Assembly (NCBI RefSeq): GCF_017876815.1
Contig: NZ_JAGIOS010000001.1
Coordinates: 60,001-92,000, forward strand
Reading direction: 5' to 3'
Source of the DNA: Sinorhizobium meliloti
Lineage (GTDB): Bacteria; Pseudomonadota; Alphaproteobacteria; Rhizobiales; Rhizobiaceae
Length of the DNA stretch: 32,000 nt
Positions 18,364 through 24,428 of the stretch are shown here, piece by piece. Numbering within the stretch: position 1 is the stretch's first letter; each line of letters begins with the position of its first letter. The position numbers and the translations under genes were made by a program. The notes below the pieces were generated by a model that ran no database searches, had not been told where the DNA came from, and worked only from the letters and a program-made list of their open reading frames with translations.

Positions 18364-18897
18364 ATGACGGCAATCGTCGTCTCGCCGCTTCAGCGCATCG
18401 CGGAAATGGCCGTCCGGCACGGCTGCCGCGAAATGCTGAGCCTGCTTGCGAAGGGCCAGAATTTTCATCGCCCGGCCGTCATCGACCATGCGAAGCATCT
18501 GACGATCGGCGTCAACGACATCAGCTTCGCCGGTACGGGCGGCCTGATTGCGCCGCAGGAAGAACACGTTCATCGGATCATCGATTTCGCCCGCAAATGG
18601 GACCGGACGCGGCCGATGCTCATACATTGCTGGATGGGCGTCTCCCGCTCGCCTGCGGCCGCGCTGATCGCCGCACTCGCCGTCGAACCGGACCAGGACG
18701 ACCACGCGCTCGCCAAGCGCCTCCGCGCCGCCTCGCCCTTTGCGACGCCGAATGCGCGGCTCGTGGAAATCGGCGACCGGGCGTTGTCGCGCAAGGGTGC
18801 GCTCGTCGCCGCGGTGCGAGCCATCGGCCGCGGCGCGGATGCCGACGGCAATGCGCCTTTCGTCCTGCCCCTGCAAGACGTGCAACATGCCGGGTGA
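18364..18897 (+). CDS. Protein-tyrosine-phosphatase-like (CX5R) family protein
   Basis: 177 aa beginning MTAIVVSPLQ. P-loop HCWMGVSRS (C-X5-R-S). The start lies 3 nt after the HD gene stop. Only the distal part of the 392-aa track ORF is used. Confidence 0.7.
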   Translation: MTAIVVSPLQRIAEMAVRHGCREMLSLLAKGQNFHRPAVIDHAKHLTIGVNDISFAGTGGLIAPQEEHVHRIIDFARKWDRTRPMLIHCWMGVSRSPAAALIAALAVEPDQDDHALAKRLRAASPFATPNARLVEIGDRALSRKGALVAAVRAIGRGADADGNAPFVLPLQDVQHAG

Positions 18898-19855
18898 AGC
18901 GCAGCCGGTCACGGTCGAGATCGGGCTCAATGCCGTGATCGTCGCGGTCGTCAGCCGCAGCCCGCGCATCCTCGCCGTCAGCGAGGCGGACGGCGACGCT
19001 CGCGACAGCCTGCCCTTCGGCCCCTTCGATCCGGCCCGCCACCGTACTTTCGAGGCGAGCCTGCGGGCGCGCGTCGAGAAGCGTACGGCGCTCAAGCTCG
19101 GCTATATCGAGCAGCTCTACACCTTCGGCGACCGTGGGCGCCAGCGTCTGCCCGGCGAGGAAGGCAAGCACATGGTGTCCGTCGGCTATCTGGCGCTGAC
19201 GCGCACCGACGCCGAGAACAACGAGAGGCTGGCCGAAGCGGGCGCCCATTGGCGCGACTGGTACGGCTATCTGCCCTGGGAAGACTGGCGTCTCGGACGC
19301 CCCGCGATACTCGACCAGAGCATCCTGCCCGCGCTTGCCCGATGGGAGTCCGGAGACGAAAAGTCGGCCTCGGCACAGCGTCGTTCACGGATACGCCTCG
19401 CCTTCGGCCTTGACGACTTTCCCTGGGACGAAGAACGCGTGCTGGAGCGCTACGAACTGCTCTACGAGGCGGGACTGGTGCGCGAGGCCGTGATCGACGG
19501 CCATTGCCGCGATCCGGAGAGCCCGGCTGCAGGGCTGGCGATGCGCCACGACCACCGCCGGATCGTCGCTACCGCCGTCGCGAGACTGCGCGGCAAACTC
19601 AAATACCGGCCGGTGGTCTTCGAGCTGATGCCGCCGGCGTTCACCCTCACCGACCTGCAGGCAACCGTCGAGGCAATCTCAGGGCGCCATCTTCACAAGC
19701 AGAACTTCCGCCGCCTCGTCGAAGGAGCGGAGCTCGTCGAGCCGACGGGGGAGACCCTGGCATCGACCGGGGGCCGTCCGGCCGCACTCTTCCGCTTCCG
19801 CCGCCAGATCCTTGACGAGCGTCCCGCGCCCGGCCTCAAGGTCGGCGGGCGCTGA
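18887..19855 (+). CDS. nadQ: Nudix-like NAD biosynthesis regulator (NadQ / COG4111 type)
   Basis: 322 aa from MPGEAQPVTVEIGLNAVIV. Degenerate Nudix-fold N-domain plus a C-terminal winged-helix-like segment (FTLTDLQATVEAISGRHLHKQNFRRLV...TGGRPAALFRF). Located near nadABC. The start overlaps the phosphatase gene by 11 nt. Confidence 0.7.
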   Translation: MPGEAQPVTVEIGLNAVIVAVVSRSPRILAVSEADGDARDSLPFGPFDPARHRTFEASLRARVEKRTALKLGYIEQLYTFGDRGRQRLPGEEGKHMVSVGYLALTRTDAENNERLAEAGAHWRDWYGYLPWEDWRLGRPAILDQSILPALARWESGDEKSASAQRRSRIRLAFGLDDFPWDEERVLERYELLYEAGLVREAVIDGHCRDPESPAAGLAMRHDHRRIVATAVARLRGKLKYRPVVFELMPPAFTLTDLQATVEAISGRHLHKQNFRRLVEGAELVEPTGETLASTGGRPAALFRFRRQILDERPAPGLKVGGR

Positions 19856-19955
19856 CGCTGCCGCGTCGCTGGCATACGCGCAAACGGCAGTTGTGACGGG
19901 TCTGCAGCGCGGGCTTACCGTCGACGGCATCAACTGCCGCTATAAGTGGCGTAGC

Positions 19956-20000
19956 CGTAAGCGAGAGCAGCGGCACTTGGTAATGGCTGCTTCTCTTACG
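19956..20000. terminator. Imperfect hairpin at the left islet border between convergent nadQ and the acyltransferase gene
   Basis: Arms cgtaagcgagagcagc / gctgcttctcttacg give about 14 bp with small bulges and a 14-nt loop. No U-run is present, so this may be a structural or terminator element only. Confidence 0.3.
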
Positions 20001-20028
20001 CCGCTATGCTGCTCATTCGCGGATTGGC

Positions 20029-20526
20029 TCAATCATCATGAGTTTCGATATCGGCTCCAATGCGGAAAGAGCGGGTTGGTCGGGTAACCAAAGGGTTTTT
20101 CCAAACCTGCACTCGTCTAATGGCACCGTCAGCTTTTCTCCTGATCGCATAAGCCTTGTTGTGATCGGCGAAATAGTTTTGATGGAGATCCCGCTTGATC
20201 CGCGGAAGTATATTCCCGACGGGAGCGACGATATCGATGAACCAGAGATGGTTCCCCGAAGCCCACTTGCCCGGTGGGGGATTGCATCCTTCGCGGAGCA
20301 GTGCTTCATGGTCGTCGTTGTCAACAAGTGCCCAGGTAACGAATGCGTTCGGTCGCCCTTCTTCGTCGAAGTACACTTTGCACTGACCGGCTTGAAGCGC
20401 AGGTATGATGTTACGACTTATGTCCGCAACGAACCAGTGTTTGTAGTCGCAATCCATCATGAGCGCAGTGACCATTCCGAGCGCTTCAAAAAAATCTAGG
20501 CGAACCTCCTTTGTCTTCTCCGTCAA
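20029..20526 (-). CDS. HlyC/CyaC/RtxC-family toxin-activating acyltransferase (TAAT)
   Basis: 165 aa. It aligns by eye to E. coli HlyC: ...KHWFVADISRNIIPALQAGQ..., ...AFVTWALV..., W.SGNHLWFIDIVAPVG. The proposed catalytic His/Asp equivalents are present (H30, D98). The TTG start overlaps the HlyD-family stop (TTGA). Confidence 0.8.
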   Translation of the reverse strand: MTEKTKEVRLDFFEALGMVTALMMDCDYKHWFVADISRNIIPALQAGQCKVYFDEEGRPNAFVTWALVDNDDHEALLREGCNPPPGKWASGNHLWFIDIVAPVGNILPRIKRDLHQNYFADHNKAYAIRRKADGAIRRVQVWKNPLVTRPTRSFRIGADIETHDD

Positions 20527-21845
20527 CGTTCCCCTAATCCGTCTTGAATTGCCTTGATTATTGGCTCGAAGAAGTAACTAATGAGCCGCCGTTCACCCGT
20601 TATCACATCGATCGTCGCAGTCATGCCGGGCGAGAACCCTATGTCGCGCCCGCCTATCCCAATTGTCTCTTGGTCGAGTACAAGGTGGATTGCGTAGACC
20701 CATTTCCCTGGGACGATGTCGCCGCGCGCATCCGCACCAACTCTAGTCACCCGACCGCGAACAATACCGAAACGTTCGGCCGGAAAGGCGTCAAACTTCA
20801 CAAATGCCTCTTGCCCTTTTTCAAGAAAGCCGATGTCACGGTTGTCGAAGAAAGCTTCAATCTCCATGCCATCGCCGGAAGGTACGATGGACATGAGTGT
20901 TGAACCTGCTTCCACGAAACCGCCGATGGTAAATACCGTGAGGTTCTCGACCTTGCCATCTGCTGGTGCGCGAATCGCGAGCAAGGCCAGTTGGTTCCTA
21001 GCCGCGCTCAGTTCCGCTTCCAGCCCTGCAAGGGACGTGCTCGCCTCGTTCAGTTGTTTCTGATAGTTCTCGACTGCGGTCGAAATGATGCTCTGCCGCT
21101 GTCTAGCCAACGCGTTCGCTTCCGCTGCAAGGATATTCAATTCGCTCTCGGAGATGAGCACCTCCAGTTCGCGTGCTCTTTGCTCACGCAATCGCTCGAA
21201 GTAGTCTACTTCGCTGATGGCTCCCTTGTCCTTCAACTTGCCGGCTGACAAAAATTTCCTGGAGGAAATATCCAGATCAGACCGAGCTTTCTGCAGTCGC
21301 GCCTGCTGGGTTATTCGCGATTGTTCGACACGATCAAGTTGCGCATTGATCCGCGCAACCTGATCTCGAAGAGACGTTAGCACAGCCTCTATAAGTGCCT
21401 CCGCTCCGTCGATAACCTCCAGGTCATGCCGCTCCCTTTCGAAGGCAGCTCTGCCTGCCGCAAGCACATCATCGTTTGCGACTGCAACATTTGTCAGCGC
21501 CGCAATGATTACTCGGGCAACCGTCGCCCCGCGACGTTGGCGACGAACCTCGGTCAGCCTGAGCTTGATCTGGCTCTCAACCGAGACGGTATCCATGCCG
21601 ACTAACAAGTCACCAGCCTTCACCGGCTGCCCCTCTGTGACCAGGATGCGTATGATCCTCCCGTTGGTCTGTGGCTGAACGAGCTGAACCCTGCTGACTG
21701 GAATAACCTTGCCTTGACCTCGGGCCACTATTTCGATCTTGAGCCAATAGCCTCCAACGAAAATCGCGACCAGACCCGAAATCAGAACCCAAGTGGTTAA
21801 GCGCACGGTTGGCGAGACTGGCCTCTCGATGACGGCTTCCTTCAT
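20523..21845 (-). CDS. HlyD-family type I secretion periplasmic adaptor (membrane fusion protein)
   Basis: 440 aa from MKEAVIERP. N-terminal TM, a lipoyl-like GQGKVIP...VQPQTNGRIIRILVTEGQPVKAGDLL segment, a long coiled coil and a C-terminal beta-barrel ending ...ERRLISYFFEPI. The ATG lies 1 nt after the ABC gene stop. Confidence 0.85.
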   Translation of the reverse strand: MKEAVIERPVSPTVRLTTWVLISGLVAIFVGGYWLKIEIVARGQGKVIPVSRVQLVQPQTNGRIIRILVTEGQPVKAGDLLVGMDTVSVESQIKLRLTEVRRQRRGATVARVIIAALTNVAVANDDVLAAGRAAFERERHDLEVIDGAEALIEAVLTSLRDQVARINAQLDRVEQSRITQQARLQKARSDLDISSRKFLSAGKLKDKGAISEVDYFERLREQRARELEVLISESELNILAAEANALARQRQSIISTAVENYQKQLNEASTSLAGLEAELSAARNQLALLAIRAPADGKVENLTVFTIGGFVEAGSTLMSIVPSGDGMEIEAFFDNRDIGFLEKGQEAFVKFDAFPAERFGIVRGRVTRVGADARGDIVPGKWVYAIHLVLDQETIGIGGRDIGFSPGMTATIDVITGERRLISYFFEPIIKAIQDGLGER

Positions 21846-21846
21846 A

Positions 21847-23604
21847 CTAAGTCTGCCTGGAACTATCGCTGGGGCGCTGCAATTGAGCAATGTTGACCAT
21901 GTTCACGTCACTGCCAAACAGCTCGGGATTGTGAGTGACAATAATCACGGTGCTCTTGACGGCGTGCCGCTTAATCGCAGCAATGACGATGTCAGCAGAT
22001 GCGGAATCAAGCGCGCTGGTGGGTTCGTCGAGGATCAGTGCACGGGATGGCGACACAAGGGCCCGTGCAAGTGCAATGCGCTGGCGCTGACCACCAGAAA
22101 GGTAAGCGCCACGTTCGCCAACGTCCGTGAGTATGCCATTTGGCAGCTCCCCAATAAACAAATCGCAACCGCTTTCGACCAAAGCCGAACGGATTTCCTG
22201 ATCCGTTGCGGCGGCGTTGCCCAAGAGAATGTTGTCCTGAACGGAACCCGAAAATAGTTCCGGCTCCTGCGGAAGATACGCAATCGCTTGCCGCACGCTG
22301 CGTTCATCGTAGTCAGTGAGTTTATGTCCGTTCGCCTCAACCACTCCGCAATCCGGCCTGTAAATGCCGCTGATAAGCTTGGCGAGAGTAGACTTGCCAC
22401 AGCCCGATGGGCCGGTAATCACCGTTGGGCGGTCCGGGGATATCTCCAGAGTGAGGTCAAGGATAACAGGTTGCTCGGGTAGATAGCAAAACGATACGGC
22501 CTCCAAGTGGAGACTCAGCCGGCCGGACACGGGGAGCGGCGGCTTGGAAATATCGGTTTCTGCTGCGGCATTCAATAAATCGCCTAACCTCAGCCGAGCG
22601 ATCCGAAGTGCCTGCCATTGTTCCCACACTGCCGACAGGGAGAGGATCGGCCCAGCCACCTTGTCGGCCAGCAGGTGAAATGCAATCAGCTGCCCGAGCG
22701 TGATCTCATTTCGCAAGACGAGATGAGATCCGAAAAAGACGATCGATATAACCGAAACGTTGCCTAAAAGTCCGCCGGTAAAGCCATTGACAATATGGAG
22801 CTTGGTTACTTCAAAACCGGCAAGGAGACTATCTGCCAATGTACGGTTAAGCCGCTCCGATTGTACCGCCTCGCATCCAAGCGCCTTGACGGTGACTACG
22901 TTAGCCAACGTCTCCACGAGACGAGACTGGTGCCTGGAATAGTCCAAAAAAGCCCTCTGCATGCGTCGTCGTGTCAGCGGCCCAATGACACCGAACGCGA
23001 TTACTTGCAGAGGCAGAACGATCAAAACGATAAGCGTCAGCATAGGGCTGATGGTTATCAGAGCAGCGACGTAGATAATCGCGAACAGCAAATCGACCAA
23101 AATGCTGGAAACGGTTCCTGTTAGGAATGCTTTGACCGTGTCGATTTCGGAAATGCGGGTTAGCGTTTCCCCCACCCGCCAACATTGAAGTTGCCTCAAC
23201 GGCAGATGAAGGACATGCCGGAAGATTCGGCCGGCGAGATCCAACGTCAGCCGATTGCCCATGTGGTTTCCGAGATAGGCCGCCAGCGCGTCCAGAATAG
23301 CGGACAAGATCGCGGTAACGCCGAGAACAACTACGATCAGCAGCAGTGTTGCTTCCCGCTGGAACGGCAGGACCCGATCAATGACAGCCTGAAAGACAAA
23401 AGGCTGTACCAAGCCAAGCAACCGCATCACAATCGCTACGATCATGAGTTCGATCATTAATGGTGTGTAGAAAAATGTGGTGCGCGTGAACCACGAAAGA
23501 GGTGCTAATCGGAGATTATCCACCACTTCGTAAGTATCCCCCACCACACTCGAAGATCGTCTCCCGCAATTATCCCTGATACCAGAATCAATTTGACTCC
23601 TCAA
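21847..23604 (-). CDS. Type I secretion ABC exporter (permease/ATPase) without C39 or C39-like N-terminal domain
   Basis: Up to 585 aa. The TMD start LSWFTRTTFFYTPLMIELMIVAIVMRLLGLVQPFVFQAVIDRVL resembles HlyB (…FTWFIP…FFQVVMDKVL). NBD has GPSGCGKST, LSGGQRQR and ILDEPTSALD. There is no in-frame ATG before TM1. The frame opens at TTG 23604; GTG codons 20, 21, 27 and 28 are alternative starts. A stop closes the frame upstream. Confidence 0.8.
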   Translation of the reverse strand: MRSQIDSGIRDNCGRRSSSVVGDTYEVVDNLRLAPLSWFTRTTFFYTPLMIELMIVAIVMRLLGLVQPFVFQAVIDRVLPFQREATLLLIVVVLGVTAILSAILDALAAYLGNHMGNRLTLDLAGRIFRHVLHLPLRQLQCWRVGETLTRISEIDTVKAFLTGTVSSILVDLLFAIIYVAALITISPMLTLIVLIVLPLQVIAFGVIGPLTRRRMQRAFLDYSRHQSRLVETLANVVTVKALGCEAVQSERLNRTLADSLLAGFEVTKLHIVNGFTGGLLGNVSVISIVFFGSHLVLRNEITLGQLIAFHLLADKVAGPILSLSAVWEQWQALRIARLRLGDLLNAAAETDISKPPLPVSGRLSLHLEAVSFCYLPEQPVILDLTLEISPDRPTVITGPSGCGKSTLAKLISGIYRPDCGVVEANGHKLTDYDERSVRQAIAYLPQEPELFSGSVQDNILLGNAAATDQEIRSALVESGCDLFIGELPNGILTDVGERGAYLSGGQRQRIALARALVSPSRALILDEPTSALDSASADIVIAAIKRHAVKSTVIIVTHNPELFGSDVNMVNIAQLQRPSDSSRQT

Positions 23605-23613
23605 CCAAAAAGC

Positions 23614-23625
23614 ACAATATATTGT
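23614..23625. promoter_or_regulatory. Perfect 12-bp palindrome ACAATATATTGT in the divergent control region (candidate operator)
   Basis: Self-complementary 12-mer located 10 nt upstream of the ABC exporter reading frame, inside the AT-rich 23605-23735 spacer. That spacer also contains CTATAAT (23704-23710). Confidence 0.25.
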
Positions 23626-23735
23626 TTAGTGACCATCAGCGTCTTTATGCTGAGATAGGCGACGCTATAGCTCTGCTATCGGGGATCTAGACGAGATTAT
23701 ACCCTATAATTGCCGCCATTATTGTGTTTTTGTCG

Positions 23736-23861
23736 ATGACAATCGTGGATTATATTATAGAAATTGCAGGGTTGTCTCCGCCAAAATGGGTTACCCTTCT
23801 CATCTATGCCATAATCAACTACGTGATTTATTTGGTCGTACTGCATTTTGCTAACGTTTGA
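23736..23861 (+). CDS. 41-aa hydrophobic mini-protein (candidate immunity / membrane peptide)
   Basis: Hand-translated as MTIVDYIIEIAGLSPPKWVTLLIYAIINYVIYLVVLHFANV. One predicted TM helix. It lies immediately upstream of, and co-directional with, the glycine-zipper gene. No obvious SD. Below the ORF-track length cut-off. Confidence 0.35.
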   Translation: MTIVDYIIEIAGLSPPKWVTLLIYAIINYVIYLVVLHFANV

Positions 23862-23912
23862 ATGGATTGCGACCTATCAGAGGTAGAAACGTTACTGGAT
23901 TGGAGAACTGCG

Positions 23913-24191
23913 ATGGGAAGTTCAGGTGGGTCAGGCGGGTCAGGCAACAACAATCCCAGTGCGGGGCGTGTTGGTAGTGCAATAGGGGTAGTTGTTGGAG
24001 GAACGATCGGCTCCGCTTATGGTGGACCGATGGGCAGCCGTGTCGGCGGCGTAATAGGTGGGCTCGCTGGTTACGCCGTAGGGAGCTCCGTTGGCAACGG
24101 AGCGCCAGATTACCGCGGCTATAACCCCATGGGAGACTATGGTGGCGGCGGCTCTCCCGGCCCTGGAGCTGGAGGGTTTGGCGGCCGCTAA
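23913..24191 (+). CDS. Glycine-zipper mini-protein, putative T1SS-exported bacteriocin-like cargo (CdzC/D-like)
   Basis: 92 aa with 35 Gly. Gly occurs at residues 21, 25, 29, 33, 37, 41, 45, 49, 53, 57 and 61, giving ten consecutive GxxxG units. No Sec signal or lipobox. GGAG lies 7 nt upstream of ATG 23913. A terminator follows. The track ORF (from 23862) adds 17 residues without an RBS. Confidence 0.7.
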   Translation: MGSSGGSGGSGNNNPSAGRVGSAIGVVVGGTIGSAYGGPMGSRVGGVIGGLAGYAVGSSVGNGAPDYRGYNPMGDYGGGGSPGPGAGGFGGR

Positions 24192-24212
24192 CCTTCGATA
24201 ATGACAGAACGG

Positions 24213-24245
24213 AAACGCGGCGAGGTTTTTGCTTTGCCGCGTTTT
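24213..24245 (+). terminator. Rho-independent terminator of the glycine-zipper gene
   Basis: 9-bp stem aaacgcggc / gccgcgttt with a 14-nt loop, ending in a tttt run 22 nt after the TAA stop. Confidence 0.6.
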
Positions 24246-24428
24246 AGCGTGTGGTTGGCGGCAATGACTTGGCAGCGACAGTTGGGACGAAATGTTTTGG
24301 GTTCGTTGCGGCTCAACGCCAGCCAAGCCAGCTGGCCTGCTTACCCGAAACAGCCCGCCAATACGTTCCTCGTTCGTGCGGCCCCCAAGGTGGCTCGGAC
24401 GCGCACAGAAACGTACTGGCGACATGCA

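Follow-up and report, generated by a model that had tools for sequence, protein, structure and literature searches.

A short open reading frame (ORF) of Sinorhizobium meliloti, located beside the genes of a putative type I secretion system (T1SS), encodes a peptide with glycine at every fourth position along its core. What is this peptide, and is it the substrate of its neighbors? We analyzed the locus within a stretch of 32,000 nucleotides (assembly GCF_017876815.1, contig NZ_JAGIOS010000001.1, positions 60,001 to 92,000 of the forward strand), here referred to as the window. With moderate confidence we favor the explanation that the peptide is a secreted, membrane-active glycine-zipper cargo of bacteriocin-like character, served by the divergently orientated T1SS operon, and that the whole would represent a horizontally acquired, polymorphic competition module. 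This explanation is the best supported one, and the comparisons add a wider conclusion. The peptide appears to belong to a previously undescribed polymorphic cargo family of the Rhizobiales, which combines an N-terminal MG(S/G)S tag with a gene cassette for an ATP-binding cassette (ABC) transporter, a membrane-fusion protein (MFP) and a HlyC-family acyltransferase. No account of such a system emerged from literature searches on the S. meliloti locus tags, on HlyC-like small-peptide systems of Bartonella and rhizobia and on lipidated bacteriocins of the T1SS type.

The peptide gene and its product are composed as follows:

23913 to 24191, plus strand: glycine-zipper peptide gene (the cargo), 92 amino acids and stop codon, by direct translation
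23902 to 23905, plus strand: GGAG, Shine-Dalgarno-like, 7 nt upstream of the ATG at 23913, read from the sequence
24209 to 24250, plus strand: stem-loop with UUUU, probable terminator of the cargo transcript, 18 nt past the stop codon, from RNA folding
Peptide, N-terminal part: tag MGSSGGSGGSG (Ser/Gly), then zipper segments at residues ~15-37 and ~45-61, joined by GGPMGSR
Peptide, C-terminal part: motif PDYxGYNPMGDYGG, then a Gly/Pro tail ending in Arg

Retranslation and a count of the composition (G35 S11 V8 A7 P6 N5 Y5 R4 M3 I3 D2 T1 L1 F1) matched the original prediction exactly with respect to the 92 residues and the six charged positions (R19, R43, D66, R68, D75 and R92), and K, C, E, W, H and Q are indeed missing altogether. 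Gly occupies residues 21, 25 and so forth up to 61, an unbroken period-4 run of 11; for other periods (2 to 7) the longest Gly run was 3-4. Among 200,000 composition-preserving shuffles a period-4 run of at least 11 was obtained in 62 (~3e-4). The run had been taken for one perfect zipper. It is indeed uninterrupted, but P39 and R43 lie in its middle (GGPMGSRVGG) and we therefore read it as two zipper segments joined by a turn (GGPMGSR) rather than as a single continuous zipper. The segments G21-G38 and G45-G61 are bounded on the outside by R19 and P65/D66. Residues 62-92 form a polar tail of 31 amino acids that is rich in Gly, Pro and Tyr and carries D66, R68, D75 and R92.

A relation to known glycine-zipper families, suspected from the pattern, was borne out by the 'glycine zipper 2TM' (two-transmembrane) model PF05433, which the peptide matched with 25.2 bits (cutoff 24.2, E=1.5e-5). 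The match spans residues 21-61, corresponding to model positions 2-43 of 43, and lies 1 bit over the gathering threshold; the relatives P0014 and P0002 and the cargo of locus L024 missed this threshold. An AlphaFold2 (AF2) model placed helices at residues 15-36 and 38-60, with a low-confidence predicted local distance difference test score (pLDDT) of 49 from an alignment of 7 sequences. The two-segment view agrees with both the PF05433 span and these helices.

Such matches raise the possibility of an ordinary envelope protein of the 17-kDa antigen, SlyB or YMGG kind that merely adjoins an unrelated T1SS. Weak matches to PF05433, PF13488 and PF13441 and the name given by NCBI ('glycine zipper 2TM domain-containing protein') would fit this reading, and the glycine-zipper 2TM hairpin motif is indeed common to the peptide and the 17-kDa antigen/SlyB/PCP lipoproteins (PF05433, PF13488). 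However, the latter are Sec/Lol lipoproteins with a lipobox Cys, whereas the peptide belongs to a family of T1SS cargo and has neither Cys nor signal peptide. The proposed lack of a signal peptide and a lipobox was thus upheld: no Cys is present in the peptide, so a lipobox is impossible, and the N-terminus MGSSGGSGGSGNNNPSAGR has no hydrophobic core of a Sec signal, as judged by inspection. The synteny of cargo and cassette across species and the nature of the true relatives in the HMMER search, which are few and all of the secreted-peptide type, also speak against an envelope protein.

The same HMMER search was exhaustive over 1.84 billion cluster representatives. It returned approximately 6 true relatives of the peptide, and the other 35 matches were glycine-zipper segments of larger proteins. 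These generic zipper proteins scored at least 8 orders of magnitude worse than the true relatives. A word-indexed homologue search gave 2 matches only. Further cargo genes, in Rhizobium lemnae, R. tropici and Rhizobium sp. BR 362, came from scans of genomes and metagenomes. The homologues in these three and in metagenomes are in frame, share 45-57% identity and begin at an equivalent MG(G/S)SS. They align across the core GWGGRxGAAVG..GGTxGSAxGPMGxRxG..GGLAGYAxG...PDYxxYNAMGDYGG.

Between R. tropici and BR 362 the cargo genes differ by a synonymous rate (dS) of 0.27 and a non-synonymous rate (dN) of 0.04, and dN/dS is 0.15. Between S. meliloti and the others the synonymous sites are saturated (proportion of differing sites pS 0.72-0.78) and the proportion of differing non-synonymous sites (pN) is ~0.3. 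In-frame conservation in orthologous loci, on which the original prediction had staked the reality of the ORF, is therefore given in the Rhizobium homologues (dN/dS ~0.15). Because the frame is kept, dN/dS is 0.15 and pS is saturated compared with a pN of ~0.3, the ORF is, on the evidence of these substitutions, a real protein-coding gene under purifying selection. Identical copies of the 92-residue protein occur in 729 collection blocks, all from assemblies of S. meliloti. Two named S. meliloti protein clusters derive from the locus, a 112-residue form of the peptide and a fragment of the acyltransferase.

In the original annotation of strain 1021 no gene was called here: the cargo region is part of a 902-nt intergenic region next to SMc02597 (PMC2573895). 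A screen published in 2008 predicted promoters and a terminator in this region and proposed a candidate small RNA (sRNA), sm16 (PMC2573895). The lack of annotation would suit a spurious ORF. Chance origin from GC-rich DNA is nevertheless dismissed by the signature of purifying selection, and the kept frame with saturated synonymous sites is accompanied by a Shine-Dalgarno sequence and a terminator flanking the ORF. We regard it as very improbable that the ORF is either spurious or an ordinary envelope gene. The terminator hairpin (24209-24250) folds with -24.5 kcal/mol (z = -3.6 against shuffles). It was missed by the consensus scan, since its T-run is short, and revealed by direct folding.

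An alternative in-frame ATG at 23862 would lead to a protein of 109 amino acids, and one NCBI record (P0001) uses this long form. The start at 23913 is preferred because GGAG lies 7 nt upstream of it and because the homologues begin at the equivalent MG(G/S)SS. The longer form was rejected, since its start is not preceded by a Shine-Dalgarno sequence and the extension (MDCDLSEVETLLDWRTA) is absent from the homologues. The segment DLSEVETLLDW within the extension was considered as a double-glycine leader and rejected as well: the GG is out of register and the neighboring ABC transporter has no C39 domain. Separately, a variant (P0001/P0012) of the S. meliloti cargo was found in which a tail frameshift (...GGGGSPALELEGLAAANLR) replaces the last 11 residues.

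The genes upstream of the cargo and the cassette on the opposite strand are arranged as follows:

21847 to 23604, minus strand: ABC permease/ATPase of the HlyB type (T1SS), with the Pfam domains ABC_membrane and ABC_tran only
20523 to 21890, minus strand: HlyD-family membrane-fusion (adaptor) protein, TIGR01843, E=3.6e-135, full length
20029 to 20526, minus strand: HlyC-family (toxin-activating) acyltransferase of 165 amino acids, PF02794, E=9.6e-40, whole model
23548 to 23690: AT-rich intergenic region (GC 41-45%) that separates the ABC operon from the divergent unit of small ORF and cargo
23691 to 23861, plus strand: small hydrophobic ORF with two transmembrane (TM) segments, candidate immunity protein, from the ORF list; its stop codon abuts 23862

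According to the NCBI gene calls the ABC gene likely starts at GTG 23547 (566 amino acids) and the adaptor gene near 21845 (439-440 amino acids). The N-terminus of the ABC transporter carries neither a C39 nor a C39-like domain: the match to TIGR01846 begins only at model position 126, and ~35 residues precede the first TM region. The start of the acyltransferase gene overlaps the MFP stop codon by 4 nt, and the three minus-strand genes are translationally coupled. Both promoters are presumably located in the divergent region (23548..23690), where a scan for the sigma-70 consensus gave nothing convincing.

Is the association of cargo and cassette more than a coincidence of one genome? Via the HlyC-like protein we found 44 cassette loci, 33 of them from one genome per GTDB species and 11 from metagenomes. 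All 33 genome loci belong to Rhizobiales, namely Pararhizobium, Rhizobium, Ensifer, Mesorhizobium, Bosea and ~22 Bartonella. Close relatives of the acyltransferase (56-59% identity) were found in the same order ABC-MFP-HlyC. Four loci (L015, L023-L025) contained a homologous cargo together with the same divergent layout of cargo and cassette. The coupling of the peptide to the adjacent T1SS, as originally predicted, thus holds at the genetic level: the divergent layout recurs with homologous cargo in R. lemnae, R. tropici and BR 362 and with other cargo in dozens of Rhizobiales loci.

At least 25 of the 44 loci carried a divergent small ORF with an MGS or MGG start followed by a run rich in Ser, Gly and Asn. 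These cargo ORFs encode 75-268 amino acids and lie on the strand opposite to the ABC gene, upstream of it by a few hundred bases. Examples of their N-termini are MGSGNSGGSGNG, MGSGGSGSRSG, MGGSSDSSSNSG and MGSSSSSHDSHSSSHSS. The bodies that follow are of unrelated types: (a) a glycine zipper with NAMGDY, which includes the S. meliloti peptide; (b) Cys-bracketed Gly/Ala zippers; (c) charged peptides with CxxCH; (d) CHY...DC; and (e) single or tandem Cys-flanked glycine zippers of Bartonella. No cargo ORF was found in the Bosea loci or on incomplete contigs. Exceptions to the tag occur in Bartonella, with the starts MASSSSS (L034), MDNKKGSSSSS (L027, where the ABC gene is frameshifted) and MF..SNxWSN in a second cargo type. 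A rule of a universal Gly2 was therefore given up.

A distant HlyC relative (34% identity, L059) is located behind an RTX (repeats-in-toxin) protein of at least 1574 amino acids, which is the classical position. Because of this the small-cargo cassette is best treated as a distinct HlyC subfamily, as far as gene order and similarity tell.

The conserved tag of the cargo family is, by these alignments, N-terminal. This bears on the earlier suggestion that the C-terminal tail serves as an uncleaved T1SS signal, for which no positive support was obtained: C-termini differ wholly between cargo types, and the MG(S/G)S tag is kept instead. Classical T1SS signals are poorly conserved. A contribution of the tail to export may still exist, since all relatives with a HlyC cassette have a tail past GDYGG that is absent in the metagenomic homologue P0002. 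In these relatives the tail runs 7-22 residues past GDYGG and mostly ends in Arg. P0002, which is associated with a peptidase-containing ABC transporter (PCAT), stops at GDYGG.

As a side observation, cargo of unrelated types (L011, L017-L040 and the window at 24186-24188) often end with one or two basic residues, for example ..GGR, ..DDR, ..SHR, ..FGR, ..SRR, ..YRR, ..TKK or ..SHK. These endings correspond to no known T1SS motif. Furthermore, the scan of species representatives returned no S. meliloti locus although the search pattern matches the enzyme of the window. Possibly the genome that represents S. meliloti in GTDB is without an intact copy, as would be expected of an accessory island.

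The most unusual partner of a lysine-free peptide is the HlyC-family acyltransferase (20029-20526), which had been missing from the original prediction. The established activity of HlyC-family enzymes is the acylation of lysines inside RTX toxins. Lys is absent from the peptides of S. meliloti, R. lemnae and BR 362 and from mature P0013, and the R. tropici peptide has one Lys beside the C-terminus. The acyltransferase gene is nevertheless intact and syntenic in all of these. With no Lys in four glycine-zipper members, canonical HlyC chemistry (epsilon-N-acylation) cannot, from their composition, apply to these cargo.

The RTX systems hlyCABD and apxCABD resemble the cassette in that a HlyB-type ABC transporter, a HlyD adaptor and a PF02794 acyltransferase are encoded in one cluster and the Asp of the FID motif is kept. 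The differences are considerable. RTX cargo exceed 1000 amino acids compared with 92 here, and the peptide has no match to GGxGxD and no Lys. HlyB has an N-terminal C39-like domain that the S. meliloti ABC transporter lacks. Finally, the gene order here is ABC-MFP-acyltransferase with a divergent cargo.

Alignment to ApxC (PDB 4WHN) placed a Tyr (YKHW) of the S. meliloti enzyme at the catalytic His site (SPLHRxW). The catalytic Asp (FID, ApxC Asp93) is invariant in the subfamily and so is GQCK, a subfamily-specific motif. His24 and Asp93 (ApxC numbering) are the reported catalytic dyad (Greene et al. 2015; Trent et al. 1999). Tyr at the His24 site was found in S. meliloti, Pararhizobium, R. 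herbae, Mesorhizobium, Ensifer LC11 and several Bartonella, and His in R. lemnae, R. tropici, BR 362, Bosea and other Bartonella. Possibilities for the Tyr enzymes, judged from these residues, are that they are active, that they perform another chemistry or that they act as tag-binding chaperones. We additionally observed that the change from His to Tyr (CAY to TAY) takes a single base and that cargo with an MGG start pair with His enzymes in 4 of 4 cases, most MGS-start cargo being paired with Tyr enzymes. This pairing could reflect either phylogenetic inertia or co-adaptation.

Which site could then be modified? The initiator Met should be removed, as is usual when the second residue is Gly or Ala. 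Thereafter the N-terminal alpha-amine would be the sole amine in a lysine-free cargo, and the peptide is possibly lipidated there. Tentatively, we consider that the cassette enzyme would lipidate small, often lysine-free peptides in the cytoplasm at a non-lysine site (the Gly2 alpha-amine or a Ser of the tag), and that the acylated N-terminus, instead of a C-terminal signal or a double-glycine leader, would be recognized by the C39-less ABC/MFP pair and anchor the peptide on the surface of the producer, from where it would be delivered to neighboring cells; this proposal is more doubtful than the export reading as such. Modification of the tag is conceivable because of two precedents, AatD/CexE and MceI/MchD.

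The first belongs to the Aat/CexE/Aap system of Escherichia coli (Icke et al. 2021). AatD is a homologue of Lnt and not a member of the HlyC family. It acylates the N-terminal Gly of CexE before a T1SS-like export (PMC7943197). The likeness consists in a Gly-acylated secreted protein and its surface display by ABC, MFP and TolC-like components (PMC7943197), where acylation in our case is a hypothesis only. In the Aat system, Sec crossing and cleavage of the signal peptide expose the Gly, whereas in the peptide, which has no Sec signal, removal of Met would do so. The S. meliloti island contains no Lnt-like gene, and the N-terminal Gly (Gly2) alone is a common feature.

The second precedent is provided by the class IIb siderophore-microcins (MccE492, MccH47, MccM), which also have a HlyC-family protein (MceI/MchD, PF02794) in the cluster (PMC3281104). 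MceI and MchD help to modify the Ser/Gly-rich tail of these microcins (PMC3281104). Their Ser-rich tail is C-terminal, whereas the Ser/Gly stretch of the S. meliloti peptide is N-terminal. This tail was, as Nolan and Walsh are said to have described in 2008, the recognition element. The partners MceJ/MchC (SelO-like) and the glycosyltransferase MceC are likewise a difference: neither these nor any other modification genes besides that of the HlyC-family enzyme were found in the island from nrtR to sodC.

The neighbors of the cargo genes point to interbacterial functions. In most S. meliloti strains the small two-TM ORF encodes 56 amino acids (MSLYPIIAAIIVFLSMTIVDYIIKIAGLSPPKWVTLLIYAIINYVIYLVVLHFANV; TM calls were made by eye), and it has no Pfam match. 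In R. lemnae, R. tropici and BR 362 the cargo gene is followed by a two-TM ORF of 58-72 amino acids and a CPBP/Rce1-like protein (PF02517, E=4e-19). The CPBP/Rce1-like family includes bacteriocin self-immunity proteins. The Pararhizobium locus contained a 56-residue two-TM ORF and a multi-TM protein of 205 amino acids, and Bartonella cargo were followed by two-TM ORFs of 59-71 amino acids. Small two-TM ORFs also adjoin the cargo in loci L009, L015, L017, L024 and L025.

In five Bartonella loci (L026, L034, L035, L038 and L039) an extra copy of the first 120-180 ABC codons was present beside additional MGSSSSS cargo genes. By their arrangement these look like displaced orphan modules, which could recombine through the conserved 5' end of the ABC gene. 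The ABC genes are frameshifted in many Bartonella cassettes. Taken together, the conserved tag, the polymorphic bodies, the small membrane neighbors and the orphan modules correspond, at the level of gene content, to an interbacterial toxin/immunity pattern. A minor observation concerns two loci (L015, 7520-7651; L023, 3186-3317) with an ORF for 43 Cys-rich amino acids (MGDVGGNDNSNSEGRRECYPASAYDRHRLRCADCIHRYRHGCR) and a start of MG followed by an Asn/Ser-rich stretch. This ORF and the beginning of the CPBP-type gene overlap in different frames, and it could be a second small cargo or due to chance.

The same distribution allows a different view, namely a surface or host-directed factor, an acylated or amphipathic peptide that would act on eukaryotic host membranes (of legumes, or erythrocyte/endothelial) or self-assemble as surface or biofilm matrix. 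Every carrier that we found is a host-associated member of the Rhizobiales (rhizobia, Bosea and many Bartonella). HlyC partners are typical of RTX cytolysins directed against eukaryotic cells, and the HlyC relative of L059 is indeed placed behind an RTX protein. Acinetobacter baumannii microcins reportedly self-assemble and promote biofilm. In addition, S. meliloti was not killed when confronted with Cdz producers of Caulobacter (PMC5380434). Polymorphic cargo, orphan modules and immunity-like genes of the two-TM and CPBP type are, however, interbacterial hallmarks, and among the relatives whose type of signal is known, the closest is a bacteriocin-like peptide of the double-glycine kind. On balance we consider a host-directed or surface role unlikely.

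In this relative, P0002, a canonical double-glycine leader MRELTLAEMRFVSGG precedes the shared core, so that it agrees with the published description of Cdz-like peptides, leader included. Its gene directly follows that of a Peptidase_C39 ABC transporter and precedes a two-TM ORF of 53 amino acids. We built a Cdz-like profile hidden Markov model (HMM) from 16 published members (PMC5380434), with which P0002 scored 26.6 bits. The family core is accordingly found, judged from these neighborhoods, with two export solutions: a double-glycine leader with a PCAT, and an MGSS tag with a HlyC cassette. Through P0002, with its leader and C39 transporter, the originally suggested Cdz-like role is plausible; the part of the suggestion that concerned the peptide itself fared less well, as described below.

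In total 239 Cdz-like peptides have been published, CdzC and CdzD included, and all carry a leader of the double-glycine type (PMC5380434, supplementary file 1). No Rhizobiales entry is contained in the published list (PMC5380434). The contact-dependent Cdz system of Caulobacter crescentus (Garcia-Bayona et al. 2017, PMC5380434) and the S. meliloti locus are alike in several respects. Cdz-like peptides have 60-151 amino acids (92 here) and contain 1-2 glycine zippers, which Pro or charged residues flank without interrupting them. The cargo adjoins an ABC and MFP T1SS, there is no TolC in the cluster, and often a small TM immunity candidate is present. Both loci look horizontally acquired and vary between strains. 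They differ in the leader, which is of the MRELTxxExxxVSGG type in Cdz whereas the S. meliloti peptide starts with the non-hydrophobic MGSSGGSGGSG. The cdz cluster has no modification enzyme, in contrast to the Rhizobiales cassette with its ever-present HlyC-family acyltransferase, and the S. meliloti tail (31 amino acids) is longer and more glycine-rich than those of CdzC and CdzD.

Class II microcins of the MccV type would be similar as well: they are glycine-rich, smaller than 10 kDa and membrane-active, are exported by ABC, MFP and TolC, and have small TM immunity genes adjacent. However, their double-glycine leader is cleaved off and their ABC transporter contains a C39 peptidase; leader and peptidase are both absent here. 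The system thus resembles Cdz and class II microcins and yet, by its sequence, lacks their leader and peptidase as well as the lysine and RTX-repeat features of HlyC systems.

If the peptide is a bacteriocin-like cargo, it would be made in the cytoplasm without a Sec signal. The MG(S/G)S-rich N-terminal tag would be recognized by the exporter, the acyltransferase or both, and the peptide would then be exported, with TolC for the T1SS supplied from elsewhere. Its two-helix zipper hairpin would insert into and permeabilize the membranes of competing rhizobia, as proposed for CdzC/CdzD and glycine-rich class II microcins. The producer would be protected by the adjacent 56-residue two-TM ORF.

Several observations weigh against this explanation. 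The S. meliloti peptide reached only -0.3 bits with the Cdz-like HMM (its own shuffles averaged -15.9 +/- 3.5). The model thus appears to recognize the glycine periodicity of the peptide and not membership. Direct homology to CdzC/CdzD was rejected, since the score is not significant and only the bridge via P0002 holds. The peptide has no recognizable cleavable leader and the ABC transporter no peptidase domain, so that the export signal is not evident. In the acyltransferase the catalytic His is replaced by Tyr. In the window the immunity candidate has no ATG, and only GTG 23724 (45 amino acids) or ATG 23736 remain as starts. The intergenic region of sm16 gave no microarray signal (PMC2573895). 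Finally, four of eight strain contexts had independent lesions in the cassette, which fits relaxed selection on export.

These eight contexts (L001-L008) were chosen as mutually dissimilar, so that lesions are over-represented and their number is not a frequency. The cargo gene was 100% identical at the DNA level in all eight. The lesions comprised a frameshift of the ABC gene (L002), a 5' deletion of the ABC gene reaching the small ORF (L003), frameshifts of the HlyC and MFP genes (L006) and a deletion of the C-terminal half of the ABC gene together with the MFP gene (L008). All three cassette genes were of full length in the window and in L001, L004, L005 and L007. The start of the small ORF (23691-23693) was ATG in L001, L003 and L005-L008 and ACG in the window, L002 and L004. 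With the ACG allele the first TM helix is truncated, except where translation begins at GTG 23724 or ATG 23736. The small ORF carried several non-synonymous polymorphisms and the downstream cargo gene none.

From these lesions the system may be decaying in part of S. meliloti. A further step would be to regard the peptide as an evolutionary relic in this species, no longer exported or active, with an ORF that persists because it is short and the island is recent. Besides the four damaged cassettes, the ACG alleles, the frameshifted cargo tail of P0001/P0012, the Tyr at the catalytic position and the silent microarray region would agree with it. Against this stand the five full-length cassettes and the fact that the contexts were picked for dissimilarity. 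Moreover, the Tyr acyltransferase is kept intact in five genera, which argues for a functional variant, and the exact cargo protein recurs throughout the 729 blocks. We therefore judge a relic quite improbable. If true, it would leave a modest correction of the annotation, a small real gene missed in strain 1021.

The bacteriocin-like reading would have wider consequences. S. meliloti, a tractable model, and rodent-associated Bartonella, which are mammalian pathogens, would have an undescribed polymorphic family of secreted peptides in common. Whether a peptidase-less T1SS reads small substrates by an N-terminal tag alone would become a testable question, and so would the movement of one toxin core between export systems. 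The role of a 'lysine acyltransferase' on lysine-free substrates would have to be sought in N-terminal or serine lipidation or in a non-catalytic, chaperone-like function. Should lipidation prove true, the cargo would form a new class of N-terminally lipidated polymorphic T1SS bacteriocins, with new chemistry and substrates for toxin-activating acyltransferases. Such loci could affect strain competition in the rhizosphere and nodule occupancy.

The genes described are part of a region of distinct composition:

19950 to 24250: low-GC island of ~4.2 kb in the S. meliloti chromosome, ~48-58% GC compared with ~63% in the flanks

The island is located between the NAD regulator gene (nrtR, 18740-19855) and sodC/nadCBA (from 24429). 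No direct or inverted repeats were found at its borders and no Rfam family matched within it. A last observation concerns the 3.7-Mb record CP090106.1 of S. meliloti Ak57 (L050, 1732-2448 and 2448-4148), in which the Prokaryotic Genome Annotation Pipeline (PGAP) calls the ABC gene a 'peptidase domain-containing ABC transporter'; Pfam finds no C39 there. The glycine-zipper gene is missing from the listed gene table of this record. The record is labelled 'plasmid pSymB' and holds the chromosomal nad/sodC neighborhood with the same gene order.

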